Part shown: one piece after another, positions 3,380-35,362 of the stretch | How the letters are laid out: each line of letters begins with the position of its first letter | Numbering within the stretch: position 1 is the stretch's first letter | From: a virus | Strand: one strand, 5' to 3' | Virus record (IMG/VR): IMGVR_UViG_3300050821_008688 | Span: 35,669 to 99,668 of that record | Length of the DNA stretch: 64,000 bases | Notes under the pieces: model-generated | Told to the model about the DNA's origin: nothing | Databases searched by the model: none | The model's input: the letters and a program-made list of their open reading frames with translations, nothing else | Position numbers and translations under genes: made by a program

Positions 3380-3469
3380 CCATTATCACTTTTCCTGAGA
3401 TTCCTGTCTATAGTACTTTAGTACCGATTTTTTGCTTGACAAGGAAACTCACGGGTGTACACTCAGTTC
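3380..3469. promoter_or_regulatory. divergent sigma70 promoters with a GTAC-N4-GTAC operator
   Basis: leftward TAGACA-N17-GATAAT, rightward TTGACA-N16-TACACT, operator at 3413-3424. Confidence 0.7.
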
Positions 3470-10934: not shown

Positions 10935-12566
10935 ATGAGCGTTCCAAAAGTGATAGTCAAAATCAAAAAGCGATTCGGTATCTTCGTTCAGGACACCAAC
11001 CCTCCCTATCGGTCGCATGTCTATCCCCGAGCCTACACCAGCCGCGCCCATGCGAAGCGTGCGATACTTGATTCTATCGTCTACGAAGTGCGCCCACTTT
11101 CTCTGGCGCGTCCATTTTCTCTTCGAGGTGAAAAGTGATAATCAAGAAAGCGAAACAAGTTTGGGTCATCTGGTATAAAATCGAGTCCGGTGGCTTTCGG
11201 TCTTTGAATGAGGGAACCACGGACACGTACGAGACCAAGGCCGCAGCCGAGGAAGCGTTGAAGAAGTATCTCGCCACGTATCCACCTGTGCTTCCCGGCT
11301 CTCGGTACGACGTACGCCCGCTTTGAAGTGAAAAGTGAGGAGAGAAAAATTATGAGCAAACGAAAAGTCATACGAAAAGCGCGGTCGCATCGGTTTGGTG
11401 TCTTCGTTAATGACGGCCACGGTACTGGCGTACGGTCGTATTCTCTGCCGAAGGTCTATGGTAGCGCAGTGAGAGCGCAGATAGCTGCGGAGGCCAAAAG
11501 TCTCGCGCTGATAGAGAGAGTGGATATGTTTGTTGTCCGCGAACTGCGGCAGGGAGAAAAATAATGGTAGAGCGAATCATTCTTCGCAGTGGTAGAAGTA
11601 TTGAAGACCCAACTGATTCGGCACCGATAACCTTGACTATGACGGGCGGCACTCCGGTTTTTCTGGCCGCGATTGGCTGGCCCGTTAGATTAGCGATTTG
11701 GGTTTTGCGGCGCTATGTTCGGAGGATAACCGAAAATGAAAATTAAAATTAGAAAAGCAATCACGCGCTATCGCGTCGCATTGGGAAATCTGGGCTGGTC
11801 GGCAGACCTTCCTGACTTTTACAAGTCGCGGTTGGCTGCTACTCGTGCGGTCACGAAACATCTGAAAGAAATCCACGGGACGGCAGCGGAGATGTGCTAT
11901 AGTGTTGAGAGGGTGATACTGTGAAGGGCGGCGCGCAGTTCTACAATTCGGAAATCGTGAAGGGATACCAGACGTACGTTATTGGAACAAAAGCGTGTAT
12001 GTTTTTGGATGAGCGAAAGCTACCGTCGTCGTTCCGTATTCGGTGGCGTGTGCTGGACATTGATGAGTTTTATTACGCCTTGCGTTTTGAGGCGGTTGAG
12101 ACTAAGATGGGTTTCACGAAAGAGAACGGCGTGTTCCAATGCCGATTCGCAATGAAGGCGGTGTCATGATGGCTAAGAAGTATGTTATCACGTTCAATGC
12201 GGCGTGTATGTTTGGTCAGGTTGAGCGAAAGCGTTCTGGAAGTATTCCCTATGAGTTTGATACGCGCGCCGAGGCTGAAGTTGCGCTTACAAATTCGCTT
12301 CGGTTGCATCCTCTTCGGGTTTGCACGCCGGAACAAATAGACTACCAAGTAGTGGAGGTGAGCGAATGAGCGCCAAAAAGAAAGCGAAGAAGTTGCCGGT
12401 GCGTTATCAGGTTGTGTACGAATCGGATGCGACGAGAAAGACAGAGCCATCCACAAATTATCCCGGAAAGTTTAAGACGCGCGCCGAAGCCGAGCAGCTT
12501 CTTAATGGACTTGATGAGTGGTTTCGCGAGTCAATGGGCTACCGAGTTCAAGAGGTGCGCGCGTGA
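10935..12566 (+). other. tandem array of six related 60-70 aa proteins plus two unrelated ORFs
   Basis: ORFs at 10935, 11135, 11352, 11736, 12166 and 12366 share a basic N-terminus, (Y/F)x(S/T)xxxAxxA and C-terminal (Y/F)xVxx(L/V). Confidence 0.7.
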
Positions 12567-13951: not shown

Positions 13952-16256
13952 ATGAGCGAACGCTTGCAGCCCACGTATTTCGTGAAGCATATTGACAACT
14001 CGTATTCTATCGCGGAACCGCAACCTGTCTACGTCCCCGCAAGTGAGACCGTCACTTGGCAGAATATGGGTCCAGTTGGCTGGTCGGAAGACCCGAGTCG
14101 TGTCGGTACTCCGGGACGATTGATTAGTCAACTTCGATTCATCGTGGACCAAGCGCCGATGCTGAATGTTCCCACGGGTCAGGATGCTTTGGCGCGTCTG
14201 AACAATTCAGTGGTGCCGTACATCTATATGAATCCGAAGACGTGGGAGTCGCTTTCCGAGCCACTGTTTAATGTGGGCCAAGCGCGACCGAAGCTGGTGT
14301 ACTACCGTCTCTCGTTCAAGTGTCCGACGAAATTTGTGCCTCTCGATTTGATACCCGAGGGCCGAATGCTTTGCACGTCAAACAAAATTCCGGGGGTGGA
14401 GGGGTTGTGATGAAGCATTGTCCTACAGATTGTCCGTGTCGTTTTCCACGTAGCCGAACACTGACGGGGCAGGACCACATTCGGATGGAGTACAATCATT
14501 TTGATGAGACCGGTGAGCCGCGATACCCGCAGACGGAAACCACCCCGCCGCAGGGCGAGGTTCATTGGTTAGACTGGCACGAATCGGAGGAATGATGAAA
14601 GAGACACATGCAATTTTCGTGCGGGGCCGCGCATATAATGTGTACGAGTGCGCGGGCTATGTGAAGGCAAGCATGGACGGAATTTTCGGCTGGTCCTCCG
14701 TGTGGGCTGAAGACGAATTTCATTTGTTGATGCGAATCGTGACGGCGCTGGACGGCGAGCAATGAAAATTGTAAAGTATGGCAAGGTTATTCTTGAACAG
14801 GGCACGGTGCCTCGCATTGAGGGCTGGCTGATGATGCCGGAGATAGAAGACCCACCCGACGCTTCGCCGGAGCAACTGGTTGCAGCGGTTGCTGCGGAGT
14901 GGGCGCTGAAACATTTGCAGGCGGTGTACAGCGGAGCCGTGCTAGACGGGCTGATTCAGGCGGGAAAGAAAATCAAAAAGGAACCGTCATGACACCCGAT
15001 GATGGTCTCAGAGGCTTGGGGCTTTGCTTCGCAATTCTGGGAACCCAAAAAGAATTGGCGGAAGCGGTGACAGCAGACAATTGGAAAGAGCGGTGCGTTC
15101 TTTCAATTCGGTTGAAACGGTTGGAGGGAGAATTAGATGCGCTACGTCGTGAGATTGAACCCACACTCGTACAATCCGCTCACGAAGAAAGTCATGGTAA
15201 ACAAACTGTGGGAAGTTGAGCAGCGCGCGGACAAAGATAGCGAGAGAGTAATTTGGCATTGTGCGAACGTGCGGATTGGCGTGAACCCGATTGAGTATTT
15301 TTTTACGGTTCCGAAAAAGAACGAGCCCCCGTGGGAGTTGCATTACCAAGGAACGTGTTATACGGACGGGCAGGATAACGCGATTGTGATTTTGGGGGTG
15401 CCTGATGTCAATTAGTTTGAAACCAATCTATCAGATGTTCGCGCCGGTTGACGGTTTCGCGGAGTTTGTAGTTTTGGTGTCGCTCACGGCGATTATCGTG
15501 CTGGCCTTCATGCATATTCTCACGGATGCTTTTGCTATGGCGCTCACAGCCGTTGGTGGTCTCGGAGTTGTTCACGATAATTGCGCTGCGTATTTGGCGA
15601 GTCGCGCGGAAAGATTCTCGCATCCAGAGGGAGACCATGAAGGTCACTGATAAAAATGAAACGTTGCAGCCACCAAAGGGTTTTGAGGCGTACGATGTAC
15701 GAGCCGATGGCGCATATCTTCGGCTAGAGTACAGCCAAACCAAATACGTTCCTGACCCCACGGATAAATGCATGGGGCAGAGGATGGACGGTTGGACTAC
15801 GGTGGTAATTTATTTGAACGACCAAGGGCGCGAAGTTCTTCGCACTGAGGTGTACACTAGAATGGCGTTACCACTGCCGGATGCGATTCCAAAGCCGTGG
15901 TACTTTAAGTTTGCTGATATGATTTTAGATGCATTTAACGCATAGGAGGCTTTATGAGTCAGGAAGAAATCAGTCGTAAAGTAAGACGGACGTGCGAAGG
16001 TTGCGGGAAGGCAGTTGAATACGAGTTTATTGGAGCAACCGATGCTGCGCTTGTCGAAATGATGAGTTGGTACACGATAGTTCGGCAGTTTCTGATTAAC
16101 GGTCGGCCAGAAAAACTCATGGTGCAGGCGTGTTCTATTACCTGTGTTCCAGCGGCGGCGCTAAAGTTGGAAGCAGTTCCGTCCGGGTTAGATGAGCCCG
16201 CCGACCAGATTGATTTGTCTACGTTGCAGGTCAATCCAGACCCAACGGTAAACTAA
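13952..16256 (+). other. block of about 9 small hypothetical genes, including a two-TM membrane protein (15405-15650, possible holin)
   Basis: translationally coupled ORFs; 15405 has two hydrophobic helices. Confidence 0.5.
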
Positions 16257-17845
16257 TGAGCAAAACTATCCAACATGGCGATACAGCACGTCAGTCAATT
16301 CTCCGGGGTGTTGATTTCCTCGCGGACGCGGTGAAGATTACTGAAGGTCCGCGCGGGCGCAATTGTATTTTGGGCCAGCGTGCGTTAGGACAAAGCCCGA
16401 AAGTTACGCGTGATGGTGTGACAGTTTCAAATTACGCGGACCCGATGGACACGACTGAACAACTCGGAGCCGACCTTGTGCGCGAGGCCGCGCAGAAGAC
16501 CGACAACTCCGTGGGAGATGGTACGACCGCAGCAATCGTTCTCGCGCAGGCAATGATTCACGCCGGTTTTGATTTGATAAAAGATGGCGCAAATCCGATG
16601 GCGATGGAGCGCGGAATTCACAAAGCGACCGAGGCTGTAATTGCGCGTCTTCAAAAGATGGCGGTGGAAGTTTCGGGCGAAAAAGTTTTTCAAGTCGCAA
16701 CTGTGTCGGCCCACGGGGATGCGGAGATTGGTAAACTCGTTGCGACTGCGGTTGAAAAGGCGGGTAAGGATGGAGTGGTTACCGCCGAGCCGTCGTCAAC
16801 GTCGGACACGTACATTGAGACGGTCGCAGGAATTGAGCTAGAAAAGTCCAGTCTGATATCGGCGGCGTTCATTACAAACCCGGAAGAAATGAAAGCTGAG
16901 TTACCTGACTGCCGAATTCTTTTGTGGGAGGGAGTGATTGGGACAGCGAAATCATTGGTTCCGATTCTTGAGCAGGTTCATAAAACTTCAACGCCGCTGC
17001 TTATCATCGCGGGCGGATACGAGCAGGAAGCCTTGGCGTGCATCATCAACAATAAATTGAAACTGCATCTGCCGCTGATTGCCGTTCGCATGGAAGCGTA
17101 TGGAGAGAGCCGAAAAAATCTGATGGCTGATATATCAACACTGATTGGTGGCACGGAGTACACTGAAGACAAGGGGATGAAAATAGAAAACGTAAAAATT
17201 GAAAATCTAGGTTCGGCGCGTAAAGTCGTTACGAGTATGTCAAAGACTCAAATCATCGGCGGCAAAGGTAGTCAGACTGAACTGGCTGGACGCGTTCAGC
17301 ATCTTCGCGAAGCTATAGATATATCTGAACCGGTGCTAAAGCCGAGCCTCAAACGACGGCTGGCGGCGTTGCTGGGCGGCATCACGATTATCAAAGTCGG
17401 CGGCGTCACCGTCACCGAGATGGAAGAGAAGAAAGACCGAGTGGTTGATGCAATGTCGGCGGCGAAGGCCGCAGTTGAATCGGGAGTCGTGGCTGGTGGC
17501 GGAATGGCACTGTTGGAAGCCTCGCATATTCCTGTACTCAATGTTCCGAGCGGCGAAGAAGCGAAAGGTGTACAAGTGGTGCGTGTTGCGTGTCAGGCTA
17601 TCGTCAAACAAATCGCGGAGAACGCGGGCGTCAGCGGCACGCTAATATTGGACCAACTGATGGCGACACCGGATTTGGGATTCAATGCGATGACTGGTGA
17701 GTTTGAAAATCTCGTCAATGCTGGAATTATTGACCCGGTTAAGGTCGTGGTGGAATCGCTTCGGAATGCATCCGCTGTTGCGTGCAGTATTCTTACGATG
17801 GGCGCAACGGTCGCAGAGAAGTCCACGGAGAAAATCGATGGCTAA
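16256..17845 (+). CDS. groEL: chaperonin GroEL (phage-encoded)
   Basis: LADAVKITEGPRGRN, VTRDGVTV, VGDGTTAA, EMEEKKDRVVDA, GIIDPVKV. Confidence 0.97.
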   Translation: MSKTIQHGDTARQSILRGVDFLADAVKITEGPRGRNCILGQRALGQSPKVTRDGVTVSNYADPMDTTEQLGADLVREAAQKTDNSVGDGTTAAIVLAQAMIHAGFDLIKDGANPMAMERGIHKATEAVIARLQKMAVEVSGEKVFQVATVSAHGDAEIGKLVATAVEKAGKDGVVTAEPSSTSDTYIETVAGIELEKSSLISAAFITNPEEMKAELPDCRILLWEGVIGTAKSLVPILEQVHKTSTPLLIIAGGYEQEALACIINNKLKLHLPLIAVRMEAYGESRKNLMADISTLIGGTEYTEDKGMKIENVKIENLGSARKVVTSMSKTQIIGGKGSQTELAGRVQHLREAIDISEPVLKPSLKRRLAALLGGITIIKVGGVTVTEMEEKKDRVVDAMSAAKAAVESGVVAGGGMALLEASHIPVLNVPSGEEAKGVQVVRVACQAIVKQIAENAGVSGTLILDQLMATPDLGFNAMTGEFENLVNAGIIDPVKVVVESLRNASAVACSILTMGATVAEKSTEKIDG

Positions 17846-27216: not shown

Positions 27217-29445
27217 ATGTCCGATAAAGACGCTATCACTACTGTCCATTTCAAGGATGAAGGGCAAATCCGTATCCTAGACCTTCCCGGAGCCGTAGAT
27301 TACGGGATATTTGCGCTTCCAATTGGTCCTACTGAGGTTGGATTTGCTGACCAACCGCGTGATGACGTGTCAATGTTGAAGGAAGCGAATCTCAACCGAG
27401 AGGAATCGGAAAGTTTTATCGCAACTCGTGGTTTAATCGGACGCTGGAACACCGCTGAACTTATGCTTCGCGCGTGGGTTGAGCCGATTAAGTGGAAAGG
27501 TAGCGAACAGTTTCGGTCTCACCTCGGAATTCCGCTTGTCGCGGAACAATTTTACAGTATTCACAGTGTTGTGAACCAGACTTTGTTTGGCGGCTATCGA
27601 GTTTTCAAAATTGACGCTACTTCTGGCACGCCACTAGAGTGCGCGCTGGCGCAGGAAGCTATTTTGAAAGCTGAATTGCGAACCTGCGGCTTTAAAGGTG
27701 TGTCTGCGAAGTCCGAGATGCGGGAAATTACATACGACGGAATTTTTTACGGTTTCGGCGTCGCGATGATTGGTTGGAAAACAATCAAGCAGAACATCAT
27801 CAAGAAAGTTCAGAAACTGCACACACAAACAACGACCATTAATGGTATTTTAATTCAAGTTCCAGACCCAGACCAAGACACTATCGATGACGTGGAAGAT
27901 AAAGTCATCGGCATTCAAGAATTTAACTCTCCAGTTTTGGAGCATGTGCCTCTTCGTCGCGCGCGCTACGCACCAGACCTTCGCCGAGGAGACCCGCGCT
28001 GCGCAGAATGGTTCGGACGCATCATTTATCCGACCGGATACGACCTTGACGCGCTCCGCAACACTGTGGGATGGAAAATTCCGGCTCGTCCAGACCTTGT
28101 AAAGTTGACGACACCGCAAATGCAGGATGAAGCCGCTACAAATCCGCTGGAAACTCTCGGGTCTAACACTGGGAACCCGATTTTTCAGCAAACAACGACT
28201 CCACAGAAGGCGTATCCTGAAAATTATACCGAACGCACCGCGCACGACCCGCTGATGCGGAAATTTGAGGTGTTTGACTACTGGACTGCGGTTCGGCACT
28301 GTGTGATTTTGAATAAACAGTACGTTTTGCTAAATGAAATGCATAAATTTGGTCGTGTACCGTTCTTGGGCTTTTGTTTCCGCAACGCTCCTGACTCTGC
28401 GAACGGATATGGCGTCGCTTTTTGGCTCACAGACTTTCAGCGGGTTTGTCAGGGCGTTATCAACGCCTATTTGGACGACATGAACCTGAATTTGATGGGC
28501 GTTTACACTTCTCCGGCTGGCGCGAACAATTCTGCGCAAGCCCAGTGGATTTTCCCCGGAAAAGTTTTCAAATCTGACCCGCAGGGCAAGGTTGAAGCCT
28601 TGGAACGCAACGGAGTGGACGCAAAAGAACCTCTGGCGGTCATTGCGCAAATGAAAACGTGGGCGGCGTCGATTGTTGGCGGCGGTCCCGGCACTTTAGG
28701 CTCAAATCCCGGCGCTGCGGGCGATATGCGTACACCTGCGGGTGTCGCGGCCATCTCGGGCGGTGAAACCGTCAAGATGCAAGACTTGATTGACGTGATT
28801 TCTGAACAGGTCTTCATTCCGTTCTTGGAATTTTGTGTGGAGCACAACAAGAAACTAAAGCCGTCGCAGGTTCGTGACATGCTCTCACAAGAACTGGGTG
28901 ATGCTTTCAGAGAGACACCACTGAACGTACTTAATGGCACTTATAAAATAGAAATCTCTGCCGGAACTAAACTTGCGGCGCGCGAACTACTCAACAAGTA
29001 TATGGGTGTTCTCCAAACGTTCCTACAATCACCGGGCACTGTTGAGAATCTTGCTGTGCAGGCGATGAAACTTGATTATAACGCCATGTTTGAGGCGCTT
29101 TATGACAGCTTCGGTGTGCCGTATAAGGAAAAGATTATCGTCCCGATGAACGCCGAGGATAAACAGCGCGCGATGATGAATACTCAAGCCGCTGCAATGC
29201 AGGGGAAAGCGGCTATTGAACAGTTGAAGGGTCAAGTAAAGCAGAGCGTGGATAATAATCAGTCTGAGAATCGTATGATTATTGAAACCGGTAAGCACAC
29301 GTTGAAGTCTCAAGGTACCGACCACGAGGCTGCGATTGACGCGGCGCAGGCGAAGGCGGAAGCGGCCACACCAGAAGCGCAGGGGCTAGACCGCGCGGCA
29401 CGCAGTTCATTTGCGAAATCCGATTCAGTTGCGTTTGGTAGCTAA
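27217..29445 (+). CDS. portal protein
   Basis: 742 aa, directly after TerL; helical; YGFGVAMIGW and GYGVAFWLTDFQRVCQGVINAYLD; Q/A-rich tail. Confidence 0.8.
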   Translation: MSDKDAITTVHFKDEGQIRILDLPGAVDYGIFALPIGPTEVGFADQPRDDVSMLKEANLNREESESFIATRGLIGRWNTAELMLRAWVEPIKWKGSEQFRSHLGIPLVAEQFYSIHSVVNQTLFGGYRVFKIDATSGTPLECALAQEAILKAELRTCGFKGVSAKSEMREITYDGIFYGFGVAMIGWKTIKQNIIKKVQKLHTQTTTINGILIQVPDPDQDTIDDVEDKVIGIQEFNSPVLEHVPLRRARYAPDLRRGDPRCAEWFGRIIYPTGYDLDALRNTVGWKIPARPDLVKLTTPQMQDEAATNPLETLGSNTGNPIFQQTTTPQKAYPENYTERTAHDPLMRKFEVFDYWTAVRHCVILNKQYVLLNEMHKFGRVPFLGFCFRNAPDSANGYGVAFWLTDFQRVCQGVINAYLDDMNLNLMGVYTSPAGANNSAQAQWIFPGKVFKSDPQGKVEALERNGVDAKEPLAVIAQMKTWAASIVGGGPGTLGSNPGAAGDMRTPAGVAAISGGETVKMQDLIDVISEQVFIPFLEFCVEHNKKLKPSQVRDMLSQELGDAFRETPLNVLNGTYKIEISAGTKLAARELLNKYMGVLQTFLQSPGTVENLAVQAMKLDYNAMFEALYDSFGVPYKEKIIVPMNAEDKQRAMMNTQAAAMQGKAAIEQLKGQVKQSVDNNQSENRMIIETGKHTLKSQGTDHEAAIDAAQAKAEAATPEAQGLDRAARSSFAKSDSVAFGS

Positions 29446-32892: not shown

Positions 32893-33830
32893 ATGTCAGG
32901 TTACCTTTATCCGTATGCTTTTCCAGCAATGAGTGCGCAGGGCACCGAGGCGTTTGGAAAACTCATTGACCCGGTGACGGGTCTCATTACCACACCGAAC
33001 AGCCAGATTACCGATACGCCCGCGAACGTTGCGAAGGCTATCTCGGCGGTGTATGCAGGCGAGGGGCAAAACGTTTTTCCGTTGCTCCGTATTACAAAGT
33101 AAATTTGAACGGAGGAAAAATGAACCTTTTCATCGTGGCGGCTATTTTGGTGTCTATTGCGGCATTCTTTGACCAGTTTACCACGCAGTTGTGTATTAAG
33201 GCGGGTGACATTGAGGCCAACCAAGTGCTGGACTGGTTGTATCGCACGAATAAACCGACACCACTACAGGGCTACGGGTTCAGCGTTCTTGCAATTGCTG
33301 CTGAGATTTCATTGTACTTGGCGCTGTATCATTTTTTTGGGCTTTGGATTGGCGTAGGCATCATACTATTGTCGGCGGAAACCGCAGTGCATGTGGCTTG
33401 CGCTATTAGCAACTACAAACTCGTGAAAACAGGCAAGGCATTGTTTGTACTGTAAGGGAGACACCATGATTTCTCTAATTTTGATTCCAGTGAAATTGGG
33501 TATTTGGCTCGCAGTCGCGGCCCTTGTACCGGCGTCATATTATGGGGCGCTATTTGTAAAGCAAGTTATTTTCAAGAAACCGGGTGGATTGTTTACCGCC
33601 AAGTTTTAAGGTCTCGCAGGAGGGATGTTATGACGCTTATAGTACCAGTTGTGAATCCGAGTTTGGCTCTGATTACGCCCGGTTATCCTTTGGTTGTTAT
33701 TCCAAAGTCAAATCCAACGGCGGGGGCAGAACTGGCTGAACCGCCACAAAATCCAACGGGTGTGGCTCAATCGGCAGTTAAACAAAAAGCCATTGCTCAG
33801 GCTGGTCATCAAAACGACCGGGTGATATAA
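32893..33830 (+). other. four small genes (32893-33102; membrane proteins 33120-33455 and 33466-33609; 33630-33830)
   Basis: GGAG RBSs; 33120 has the D..TT...G..EAN pattern of DUF5658-like membrane proteins. Confidence 0.55.
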
Positions 33831-33858
33831 AATTTTTATAGGGGGAATAATCCCACGA

Positions 33859-33975
33859 TACTGGCGGGCTGCATCTTTCAAAGCGACGCTAGGCACGGTC
33901 GGATGTTGTAGCGTTCGGCACGGCATTTCGGTCGCCACAGGTCATTGCAGGACCGGGGTGCAGCCCAGACCAGTA
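33859..33975 (+). ncRNA. unannotated structured RNA 1
   Basis: TACTGG/CCAGTA and GGGCTGCATC/GGTGCAGCCC closing stems, with internal arms. Confidence 0.6.
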
Positions 33976-33983
33976 AACAGTTT

Positions 33984-34061
33984 CGCGGGGTCGTCTAGTC
34001 CGGTCTAAGACGCGGGTCTCATAAACCTGCATCGTGGGTTCAAATCCCACCCCCGCTACCA
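33984..34061 (+). tRNA. tRNA-Met(CAT), initiator-like
   Basis: cloverleaf, C1:U72 mismatch, anticodon CAT, TTCAAAT T-loop, encoded CCA. Confidence 0.92.
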
Positions 34062-34066
34062 TTTTC

Positions 34067-34141
34067 GCGGGCTTGGCCTATTGGCAGGGCATCTGCCTTC
34101 CAAGCAGAAAAAAAAGAGTCCGATTCTCTTAGCCCGCTCCA
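34067..34141 (+). tRNA. tRNA-Gly(TCC)
   Basis: GCGGGCT/AGCCCGC acceptor, CTTCCAA loop, U73, CCA; T-loop TCCGATT. Confidence 0.9.
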
Positions 34142-34190
34142 TATTTTTCTTGACTGGACAGGGAAGTGAGGAGTAGTATCAAACGTATAT

Positions 34191-34320
34191 CAGGGTAAGG
34201 CCCGCGTGGATTGCGGCATGCAGCGGAGTGATAGGAATAGTACCTCTGGCCGAGGGAAGACCCAATCAACTCAAACAGACATGCGAATCCTAAAGCCTTG
34301 TAAGAGGGGCGGGCCTCCTG
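34191..34320 (+). ncRNA. unannotated structured RNA 2
   Basis: promoter TTGACT-N18-TAGTAT upstream; AGGCCCGC/GCGGGCCT, GGATT/AATCC and GCATG/CATGC stems; GTAA tetraloop; T run after. Confidence 0.6.
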
Positions 34321-34330
34321 CTTTTTCTAT

Positions 34331-34403
34331 GCCGGTGTGATGATAGACGCTAGGAACCTACGGTGAAATCCACCACAGCCTCCGGGAGAGGCAACCGGCT
34401 CCA
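34331..34403 (+). ncRNA. tRNA-like RNA 3 with CCA end
   Basis: GCCGGT/ACCGGC followed by T-CCA; GCCTC/GAGGC hairpin in the T-arm position. Confidence 0.6.
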
Positions 34404-34409
34404 TTTTTG

Positions 34410-34474
34410 TGGAGTGGGTGCATACGAAGACCATTGGCGACGTATGCATGGTTAGAGACCGAACCACTCCAGCC
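34410..34474 (+). ncRNA. tRNA-like RNA 4
   Basis: TGGAGTGG/CCACTCCA, TGCATACG/CGTATGCA, GGTT/GACC. Confidence 0.55.
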
Positions 34475-34537
34475 TTTTTAGGAGTACTGAGATGATTGAC
34501 GTGTGTGATGGAACGATAACAGGTGGCGTGACAACTC

Positions 34538-34612
34538 GCCCCTGTAGCGTTAAGGCAGAGCGCCGCACCCGTAATGCGGAGGTTGGTGGTTCAAGTCCAC
34601 TCAGGGGCTCCA
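34538..34612 (+). tRNA. tRNA-Thr(CGT)
   Basis: cloverleaf, loop CCCGTAA, TTCAAGT T-loop, CCA. Confidence 0.88.
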
Positions 34613-34615
34613 TTT

Positions 34616-34691
34616 TGGGATGTGGCTCAACTGGTACAGCAGGTGATTGTTAATCACCCACTTGTAGGTCCGATTCCTACCGTCCCAGCCA
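34616..34691 (+). tRNA. tRNA-Asn(GTT)
   Basis: cloverleaf, loop TTGTTAA, G73, CCA. Confidence 0.88.
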
Positions 34692-34705
34692 GTTCGGAGA
34701 ATGTG

Positions 34706-35362
34706 ATGATTAATATGGCTCCTGATTGTGAATTGATTGGCTATATTTTGCGGCACGGTGAGACAGTTCTGAACGCCAATAATTGTTGGCGCGGTTGGGA
34801 AAACCCGCCGCTCAATGAAAAAGGTACGGAGGCTGCCGAAGCTGCCGGTCACTATCTCGGGTTTCAAAAGCTAGGCCGTATTGTCAGTTCTGATTTGCTG
34901 CGCGCTTCGCAGACCGCAGAAATTGTTATGAGTTGCGCGAGTGTGGAATGCCCGTACATTTCCTACGACCCCAACCTTCGCCCGTGGGCTATTAGTAGTA
35001 AATTTGCCGGAATGGAAAAAACAGCGGAGCGATTGAAAGATTTCAAGTTTTATATTGACCACCCAGATGTACCGATTCCTCCAGACGGTGAGTCTTTGAA
35101 TCAACATCGTGACCGCAACGAAGTTATTTTTCCATATCTGGCTACACCGTATAAAGGTCTTCCGACTTTAGTCGTCTGTCACACAAGCAACGTGACTGCC
35201 GCTGTGCGACGCATCGATGAAGAGACGTTTCAGCAAGAAGAGTGGACCGATGTGGTTGAGCCCGGAGGATTAATTGCGGTGTATATGGATGGCAAAGGTA
35301 CTCTTAGCGTAATACCTGTTTTGGGCGCAGTGAAAACAGAACCACAACCGGAAGCATCCTAA
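34706..35362 (+). CDS. histidine phosphatase (phosphoglycerate-mutase family)
   Basis: LRHGET, SSDLLRASQTA, DGES, VVCH. Confidence 0.9.
   Translation: MINMAPDCELIGYILRHGETVLNANNCWRGWENPPLNEKGTEAAEAAGHYLGFQKLGRIVSSDLLRASQTAEIVMSCASVECPYISYDPNLRPWAISSKFAGMEKTAERLKDFKFYIDHPDVPIPPDGESLNQHRDRNEVIFPYLATPYKGLPTLVVCHTSNVTAAVRRIDEETFQQEEWTDVVEPGGLIAVYMDGKGTLSVIPVLGAVKTEPQPEAS

Follow-up and report, generated by a model that had tools for sequence, protein, structure and literature searches.

Four predicted structured RNA families among the tRNA genes of a soil phage

Described systems and the locus compared with them

Clusters of tRNA genes in phage genomes are usually read as helpers of codon usage or as replacements for tRNAs cut by defence systems. 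The cluster of phage T4 also contains two stable small RNAs that are not tRNAs, species 1 and species 2 (rnaC and rnaD), and the role of such 'stable RNAs' in phage tRNA clusters has long been unexplained. Here we describe four elements, RNA1 to RNA4, which lie on one strand among the tRNA genes of a virus (IMG/VR record IMGVR_UViG_3300050821_008688) within 616 nt, at positions 33,859 to 34,474 of the 64,000-nt stretch analysed, hereafter the window; the record itself is complete, at 99,668 bp, and has direct terminal repeats. The elements are predicted to be four separate non-coding RNAs from four conserved families (X, W, V and Z, in that order) in one tRNA operon, those other than RNA1 with a tRNA-type frame and a long arm as payload; this is our preferred explanation, tentatively held at somewhat under even confidence. 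They are small, concrete candidates for a role of the stable RNAs.

For the present elements, the position in the cluster, on the same strand as the tRNAs, is the part of the likeness to the T4 RNAs that is established. The 139-nt rnaC of T4, folded here with a z of −4.6, has long arms inserted within a closing helix and a hairpin adjoining the 3′ strand. However, it keeps a canonical T arm (GGUUCGAAUCC), whereas RNA1–RNA4 have neither a T-loop consensus nor an Rfam tRNA score, and no sequence homology to rnaC or rnaD was found, the blastn matches of the region to 50,697 phage records (INPHARED) being confined to the tRNAs. The tRNA-like domain of tmRNA, to which the topology had been likened in the original prediction, similarly combines an acceptor helix with a T-arm-like hairpin and has neither a D stem nor an anticodon arm, but RNA1–RNA4 gave no match to the tmRNA model (E ≤ 10) and no tmRNA call by ARAGORN, and they contain no tag frame. 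The alanine determinant of tmRNA, G3-U70, is also absent, the 3:70 pair being C-G in RNA3 and G-C in RNA4. Y RNA and YrlA differ as well, with no Rfam match on RNA1–RNA4 at E ≤ 10 and no TROVE (Ro60) domain in the complete 99.7-kb genome, where positive controls were detected.

The closest analogue of the mechanism proposed below is the C4 antisense RNA of phages P1 and P7, which is a substrate of RNase P. In this small regulatory RNA, a tRNA-like processing substrate is formed by the paired ends together with a 3′ CCA, and the loops are the functional part, but it differs from RNA1–RNA4 in size and fold, and for the latter no Rfam match in the region and no target were identified. In the engineered 'tRNA scaffold' of Ponchon and Dardel, a payload RNA reportedly substitutes for the anticodon arm, and processing and stability are conferred by the frame. 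This scaffold was built in the laboratory, and the present elements might, by analogy, be a natural counterpart to it.

The same habitat, and probably the same host phylum, is covered by the irregular 8/4 and 9/3 tRNAs and polycistrons of irregular tRNAs described from Acidobacteria-type peat and forest-soil data by Mukai et al. 2017 (PMC5389517), some of which are charged but unused in translation. Polycistrons with tRNAs are a further likeness, and the 8/4 type, with its long acceptor and shortened T stem, resembles family Z including RNA4 (8 bp and 3–4 bp). Compared by description, however, the irregular tRNAs keep a D arm, a 7-nt anticodon loop and a V arm, while Z and V have neither a D arm nor a conserved anticodon loop. 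About 8,500 candidates for structured RNAs, tRNA-like ones included, were catalogued from IMG/VR in a 2023 survey (PMC10690425). Families X, W, V and Z, and the fact that they occur together within 616 nt, appear to be new, the candidates of PMC5389517 and PMC10690425 not having been compared by sequence.

Four families and their relatives

The elements, the tRNA genes around them and the associated promoters are located in the window as follows; P5 of RNA2 and its outer closing pairs (34192–34195) were read directly off the sequence.

33846–33851, + strand: A/T-rich −10-like box AATAAT (promoter-like match 33822–33851, 9 of 12 positions)
33852–33857, + strand: leader CCCACG just 5′ of RNA1, nearly invariant in the 15-sequence alignment A2
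33860–33974, + strand: RNA1, family X, with basal helix, inner arm and a 4-bp hairpin with a 7-nt loop
33984–34061, + strand: tRNA-Met(CAU) with encoded CCA (ARAGORN and Rfam RF00005, 54.7 bits)
34067–34141, + strand: tRNA-Gly(UCC) with encoded CCA (ARAGORN and Rfam RF00005, 61.4 bits)
34150–34179, + strand: sigma70-type promoter of RNA2, TTGACT-18 nt-TAGTAT
34190–34324, + strand: RNA2, family W, helices P1–P6
34192–34205 with 34309–34320: closing helix of RNA2
34208–34212 with 34286–34290: P2 of RNA2
34216–34220 with 34280–34284: P3 of RNA2
34226–34232 with 34265–34272: P4 of RNA2
34239–34258: P5 hairpin of RNA2, with AGUA and GAA at its flanks
34296–34307: GUAA-loop (GNRA) hairpin of RNA2
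34322–34326: U-run of RNA2, a terminator-like match
34331–34403, + strand: RNA3, family V, ending in UCCA and followed by TTTTT
34410–34475, + strand: RNA4, family Z, ending in G-CC and followed by TTTTT
34538–34612, + strand: tRNA-Thr(CGU) (ARAGORN and Rfam)
34616–34691, + strand: tRNA-Asn(GUU) (ARAGORN and Rfam)

The presence of four unannotated structured elements among the tRNAs, as originally predicted, was confirmed in the sequence, together with their coordinates, the listed features and the ends U-CCA of RNA3 and G-CC of RNA4. ARAGORN and Rfam concur on four tRNAs in the cluster (RF00005 scores of 51.7–61.4 bits), and RNA1–RNA4 received no tRNA call from ARAGORN and no match to a described Rfam family even at E ≤ 10 when 33780–34720 was scanned. 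At the gathering threshold, Rfam returned only tRNAs besides chance matches in the window and eight relatives. The single architecture claimed for the four elements holds as a topology: all are Y-shaped, with a closing helix formed from both ends, a long arm, and a short hairpin adjoining the 3′ strand of the closing helix. However, they are mutually unrelated in sequence and fall into four families. The T-rich spacers said to separate all units were found after tRNA-Met, tRNA-Gly, RNA2, RNA3, RNA4 and tRNA-Thr, but the spacer after RNA1 is less T-rich.

Single-sequence folding gave a z of −4.95 for RNA1 (closing helix of about 19 bp) and −4.81 for RNA4, with none of 200 shuffles as good in either case, but only −1.8 for RNA2 and −1.5 for RNA3. 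Folding energy alone thus leaves RNA2 and RNA3 doubtful, and their support comes from comparative data. Relatives were retrieved with the portal protein (41 viral-contig loci at 69–82% identity) and with an alignment of the phosphatase encoded behind the cluster (49 metagenome loci and 33 further viral loci), which combined gave about 48 distinct tRNA-cluster regions, and all related loci came from peat, bog or forest-soil samples. A blastn search with the four RNAs against the 41 and then 90 related loci gave no match, only the tRNAs being conserved; homologues came to light only with motifs, descriptors and covariance models. Families W, V and Z were tested with models R2, R3 and R1, respectively, and the alignments for X, W and Z are A2, A7 and A6.

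Family X, to which RNA1 belongs, is represented by 15 distinct sequences, in which the leader CCCACG is followed by a 5-bp helix, an invariant C of the 5′ strand that pairs with the G of a 3-nt A/C-G-A/U on the 3′ strand, and a 10-bp helix. In alignment A2, 99.2% of the residues at 16 pairs are paired and eight pairs are changed on both sides, values that none of 500 shuffles reached on any measure, while slid controls were 22–59% paired. The G-U pairs of the helix fit the + strand only. The apical part, AAGAACA and a variable hairpin in most members, varies freely, and the RNA1 of the window is the most divergent X in sequence, with an 81-nt insert as its apex, though all pairs are retained. 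Members commonly lie 3′ of tRNA-Ala or of a −10-like box (TATAAA, TATAAG or TAAAAG at the equivalent place in relatives), with the next tRNA 5–9 nt downstream in most of them. No member was found outside this phage clade in the collection scan. We regard RNA1 as a clade-wide bulged hairpin and not as a tRNA mimic in any specific sense. It is the exception among the four: a role in cis, or as a leader bound by protein, is more likely, since its conserved part is a basal bulged helix heading a tRNA run, as would suit a leader, processing or protein-binding element.

Family W has three members of about 135 nt, namely RNA2, L076 371–507 and L056 2800–2936 (L numbers denote retrieved loci). They have in common the blocks GGAUUGCGG, AGUACCUC-loop-GAGGGAA and GAAGACGGAA as well as the GUAA-loop hairpin, and their closing helices are wholly different. 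Realigned to model R2 (A7, n = 3), they show 33 pairs, 87.8% paired, with 13 changed on both sides and 0 of 500 shuffles as good. The promoter that the original prediction had assigned to RNA2 itself is indeed present, and both homologues have retained it (TTGAC-17 nt-TATGAT or TATGCT at equal distance), so that all three members carry TTGAC-17/18 nt-TAnnnT 7–12 nt upstream and a U-run downstream. An RNA with its own promoter and terminator, both conserved with it, is what an independent small-RNA gene would show, and because promoter and U-run are conserved in all three copies, RNA2 may be regarded as a self-standing small-RNA gene, running from promoter to U-run, and probably not as a specific tRNA mimic. 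The L076 copy has ACCA ahead of its U-run. No further members were detected by the model in 54 loci or by the motif in IMG/VR, where a scan of the collection returned 12 loci, one of them real and already known (the L056 contig). Promoters like that of RNA2 occur at least six times in the window: a strong sigma70-type family, gcTTGACA-17 nt-TACTAT or TATCCT, was observed at 3436, 10753, 40012, 40677 and 49141 (+ strand) and at 2205, 9776 and 49115 (− strand), and several of these sigma70-type promoters are flanked by the palindrome AGTACT; the RNA2 promoter belongs to this type.

RNA3 of family V consists of a 6-bp acceptor-like helix, a 6-bp inner helix enclosing the blocks GAUAGACG, GGAACC and GUGAAAUCC, and a 5-bp hairpin adjoining the 3′ strand of the acceptor. 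The single-sequence model R3 matched L095 3338–3407 (E 7.7e-6) and L051 68–157 (E 3.9e-4). The three members have GAUAGACG, GGAACC, GUGAAAUCC and the end GGCUCCA in common and their helices vary; the L051 copy contains an extra hairpin within the inner-helix region. The comparison, which supersedes the minimum-energy fold, gives an acceptor helix, a 6–8-bp inner helix and a short GCC/GGC hairpin. With 17 pairs, 97.9% paired and four changed on both sides, V is the weakest supported of the four families, as 19 of 500 shuffles did equally well. In both relatives, V is preceded by a −10 box and followed by tRNA-Thr. A strict tRNA-frame descriptor (acceptor helix, adjacent 5-bp hairpin, NCCA and T-rich tail) gave 35 matches in 972 kb of both strands; 25 were tRNAs, and RNA3 was the only other match within a cluster. 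Looser descriptors (acceptor helix with two arms, or acceptor with a T-like hairpin) gave hundreds of chance matches and were dropped. The V core (AGACG, hairpin, GGAACC, GUGAA) was also found with a different outer frame in the tRNA cluster of an unrelated 360-kb jumbo phage, on the tRNA strand (L148, IMGVR_UViG_3300024331_000007, reverse strand, about 2436–2655; 17 tRNA calls in 10 kb). Several over-long tRNA calls (80–90 nt) and uncalled tRNA-like genes were observed in the same locus.

Family Z, to which RNA4 belongs, comprises four members of 66–76 nt with two arms and no D arm, the others being L071 1799–1864, L003 9412–9486 (= L110 2903–2978) and L021 18103–18169 (= L118 3029–3095). Each has an 8-bp acceptor-like helix, a long arm, a 3–4-bp hairpin, an AA linker and N-CC(A); in RNA4 the long arm is a 9-bp helix with a 14-nt loop, the hairpin has 4 bp and the linker is GAA. 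In A6 (model R1, n = 4), 10 of 18 pairs are changed on both sides, which none of 500 shuffles equalled. RNA4 aligns with the L003 copy across the arm and the inner acceptor pairs. Between the L071 and L003 copies, identity extends over 20 bases and 19 bases within the arm and the short hairpin, but the acceptor helix has diverged at four of its eight pairs, with changes on both sides at three. The loop of the long arm has 14 nt in RNA4, 4 nt in the L118 copy and 7 nt (UUCUAGG, identical) in the L071 and L003 copies. An amber suppressor, which the CUA of the latter loop would suggest, was ruled out, the loop being absent from RNA4 and the L118 copy. The lone match in a collection scan with the Z arm was a tandem-repeat artefact.

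A tRNA-type frame, that is, an acceptor-like helix of about 7 bp, a hairpin on the 3′ strand and a discriminator followed by CCA, was found in RNA3 and RNA4 (helix of 6–8 bp, N-CC(A) and then a U-rich spacer like their tRNA neighbours) but not in RNA1 or RNA2, and the earlier view of all four as tRNA mimics is in this respect supported for two of them. The acceptor of RNA3 (G1-C72, C2-G71, C3-G70, U73-CCA) is that of the tRNA-Thr in the window, and the acceptor of RNA4 (U1-A72, G2-C71, G3-C70, G73 followed by CC) is that of its tRNA-Asn; the Thr-type pattern GCC...GGC-U recurs in five of the seven V and Z members. A cloverleaf, D arm, 7-nt anticodon loop and T-loop consensus, the full set of tRNA features, are not present in RNA1–RNA4, and no anticodon-like loop is conserved family-wide in any of the four families. 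This argues against the decoys for anticodon nucleases that had been suggested, and the decoy idea survives only when narrowed to mimicry of the acceptor end. Overall, the original interpretation is partly supported. Complementarity between the RNAs, sought by eye (7 nt between RNA1 and the loop of RNA4, 7 nt between the RNA3 core and RNA2, 6 nt between the X and Z loops), was at chance level or unconserved and was set aside.

Weighing the explanations

Judged from sequence comparison, RNA1–RNA4 appear to be selected structured RNA elements and not decayed tRNA genes. In the explanation that we prefer, the closing helix and short hairpin would serve as a tRNA-type frame for excision and stability, the 5′ end being cut by host RNase P and the 3′ end by RNase E or by exonucleases with the CCA enzyme, and the long arm would be the working part, which binds a partner; RNA2 would in addition be a self-standing gene from promoter to U-run. 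This reading is drawn from the shared frame, the N-CC(A) ends, the U-rich spacers and the conservation of the long arm, whose loops contain the most conserved sequence of V, Z and W. In relatives, conserved promoters precede W, and −10 boxes precede V and X. Several points weigh against it. The RNA-library contigs show no discrete transcripts, ends or processing (low-depth coverage within 34435–34722 only), W, V and Z have 3–4 members only, and the shuffle control of V is weak. The short hairpins do not show the T-loop consensus, which makes their recognition by RNase P an assumption. RNA2 lacks a CCA within the window, none of the long arms could be linked to a target or partner, and the freely varying apex of RNA1 is left unexplained by a frame. 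In this cluster, 616 nt hold four selected non-tRNA elements absent from Rfam, which relatives mix like accessory genes, suggesting a natural tRNA scaffold whose frame would provide processing and stability and whose payload would replace the anticodon arm.

A somewhat unlikely alternative is that RNA3 and RNA4 are mimics of the tRNA acceptor end, whose acceptor helix and N-CCA are bound and perhaps aminoacylated, so that they act as decoys or as non-decoding carriers of amino acids; the binders would be synthetases, aminoacyl-tRNA-dependent transferases or toxins that attack the tRNA 3′ end. The Thr-like and Asn-like ends favour it, as does the comparison of RNA4 with its L003 copy, in which the inner five acceptor pairs are identical and the top three are all swapped. 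ThrRS and AsnRS normally read the anticodon, however, and no anticodon loop is conserved across V or Z, where the acceptor is in addition the least conserved part of the sequence. Descent from a tRNA-Thr could by itself account for the recurrent GCC...GGC-U. Nor is an encoded CCA universal, one Z member ending in G-UCA and RNA4 in G-CC-U, and the genome encodes no CCA-adding enzyme. On the other hand, it does encode an RNA ligase and contains, elsewhere, a tRNA-Gly look-alike with a 4-nt anticodon loop, and the Acidobacteria-type irregular tRNAs that are charged yet unused in translation (PMC5389517) are a further point in its favour. If the copying of acceptor ends were functional, phages of Acidobacteriota, whose phage biology is almost unexplored, would seem to interfere with or exploit the systems that charge tRNAs or target their ends.

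It is also unlikely, RNA1 being the best fit, that the elements act solely in cis within the operon, as sites for RNase III, E or P, as 5′ stabilisers or as an antitermination leader for the NusG-type factor of the phage, with no role in trans. This would explain why X heads a tRNA run, 5–9 nt before the next tRNA in most relatives, why it is preceded by a −10-like box and CCCACG, and why its conservation is limited to the basal bulged helix. The U-rich spacer after every unit points the same way, as does the cleavage by E. coli RNase E just downstream of the encoded CCA (PMC2190699). But simple punctuation needs neither the invariant loop motifs of V, nor the 20-nt identical arms of Z, nor a six-helix W with promoter and U-run. 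Moreover, W, V and Z are present in only 3–4 of the approximately 48 related clusters, so the operon works without them.

A broader proposal, which we consider distinctly unlikely, is that phages of the clade share an interchangeable set of tRNA-framed RNAs, at least five families in all (X, W, V, Z and a fifth, Y, described below), in which the arm is the payload and the acceptor is retuned to a resident tRNA, Thr-type in most and Asn-type in RNA4. The RNAs would then be charged or bound as that tRNA and would either carry amino acids without decoding or bait host systems that attack tRNA 3′ ends, alongside the RNA ligase, the cluster-adjacent phosphatase and the tRNA-Gly look-alike.

That the elements are neutral remnants of duplicated tRNA-Thr and tRNA-Asn genes is highly improbable and was already disfavoured. 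The tRNA-like ends of RNA3 and RNA4, the tRNA-like genes of relatives that ARAGORN does not call (e.g., L056 2621–2699) and the mosaic clusters with homing-endonuclease genes would agree with decay, but every helix is kept by compensating changes, the conserved cores are unlike tRNA, the fold z is near −5 for RNA1 and RNA4, and RNA2 has a conserved promoter of its own. A protein-coding or DNA-level feature (small ORFs, an origin or a packaging site) is hardly credible, as the only open reading frames overlapping the region are short (30–57 codons, on both strands) and none has a ribosome-binding site or is conserved, the G-U pairs of the X helix become A-C mismatches on the opposite strand, and the minus strand of RNA1 and RNA4 folds less well.

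Genome context, RNA library and the clusters of relatives

The flagged stretch lies between the head-gene module and a gene of the histidine-phosphatase family, and the host phylum of this approximately 100-kb soil phage is probably Acidobacteriota. The following features surround the elements or lie between them and the last tRNAs.

27217–29442: SU10-type portal (head-gene module)
34479–34537, + strand: spacer with AGGAG, in which an ATG at 34492 opens a Thr-codon-rich mini-frame into tRNA-Thr
34706–35362, + strand: gene of the histidine-phosphatase family (Pfam PF00300, E 3.5e-25)

The phosphatase gene was present in 19 portal-derived loci (tblastn) and lies directly 3′ of the last tRNA in 7 of the 10 relatives whose clusters were compared, other sequence intervening in L002, L009 and L016. 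The genome also encodes an RNA ligase (PF09414, genome positions 227–727, near the left end), and no CCA-adding enzyme, RtcB or Ro was found in it. The phosphatase adjoining the cluster and the ligase might form a tRNA-repair pair. The tRNA-Gly look-alike was read from the sequence.

In a soil RNA library, contigs with 100% identity were found over 33503–33715, 34435–34585 and 34573–34722 at a depth of 2–4, none covering RNA1–RNA3; these are Logan contigs, which cannot show RNA ends and whose uncovered parts are not informative. The latter two contigs are compatible with read-through from RNA4 into the tRNAs but fall short of proof of transcription, and carry-over of DNA is possible. The contig 34435–34585 spans the spacer at 34479–34537. 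The mini-frame that starts there contains the codons ACG, ACA, ACA and ACT and runs directly into tRNA-Thr(CGU), and a similar leader (M-T-D-..-D-G-T-T) was seen at about 15940–15990 of L002, upstream of an uncalled tRNA-Thr(CGU)-like gene, so the mini-frame could be a translated leader coupled to tRNA-Thr expression. The anticodon loop of tRNA-Thr(CGU) itself is CCCGUAA, with C at position 33 in place of the near-universal U; the same loop is found in the L002 gene (15988–16062), which ARAGORN does not call.

The clusters of the relatives are mosaics of tRNAs, homing-endonuclease genes, small zinc-ribbon genes, sigma70-type promoters and recurring non-tRNA elements. HNH-type homing-endonuclease genes lie between the tRNAs of L007 (about 15990–16440) and L016 (14420–14760 and 14930–15340), and small CxxC...CxxC zinc-ribbon ORFs are inserted among the tRNAs of L009, L016 and L021, which fits a mosaic turnover of the clusters. 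A scan of genome contigs gave a single match, L146 (CAWDZO010000026.1), from a Methanoregulaceae archaeon bin and without a tRNA cluster. Its ABC-transporter genes are joined at the contig end to a fragment of the phage clade (a zinc-ribbon ORF and the start of the phosphatase gene), for which chimeric assembly or mis-binning is the probable reason.

A fifth element, Y, of about 75–115 nt, occurs in at least eight relatives, is absent from the window and has no Rfam match. It was located at L023 11920–12035, L076 592–704, L002 15516–15590, L010 8205–8360 and L016 14855–14920, and more weakly in L049, L056 and L084. A closing helix and three hairpins give it a cloverleaf-like form, with the conserved block GAGUUCAnCCAUGAGGGAACAGCGUACG and an end of CACCAG or CCAGCCA. 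Adjoining Y in L023 (about 11805–11920), a promoter, a canonical T arm and a 3′ acceptor strand ending in CCA are followed about 50 nt on by an apparent 5′ half of a tRNA that includes a D arm (GUCGUCUAGUGGUUCAGGAC), an arrangement that may represent a permuted or split tRNA. The uncalled gene at L056 2621–2699 is tRNA-Met-like, with an acceptor helix, a CAU anticodon loop and an ACCA end, and its T arm is aberrant.

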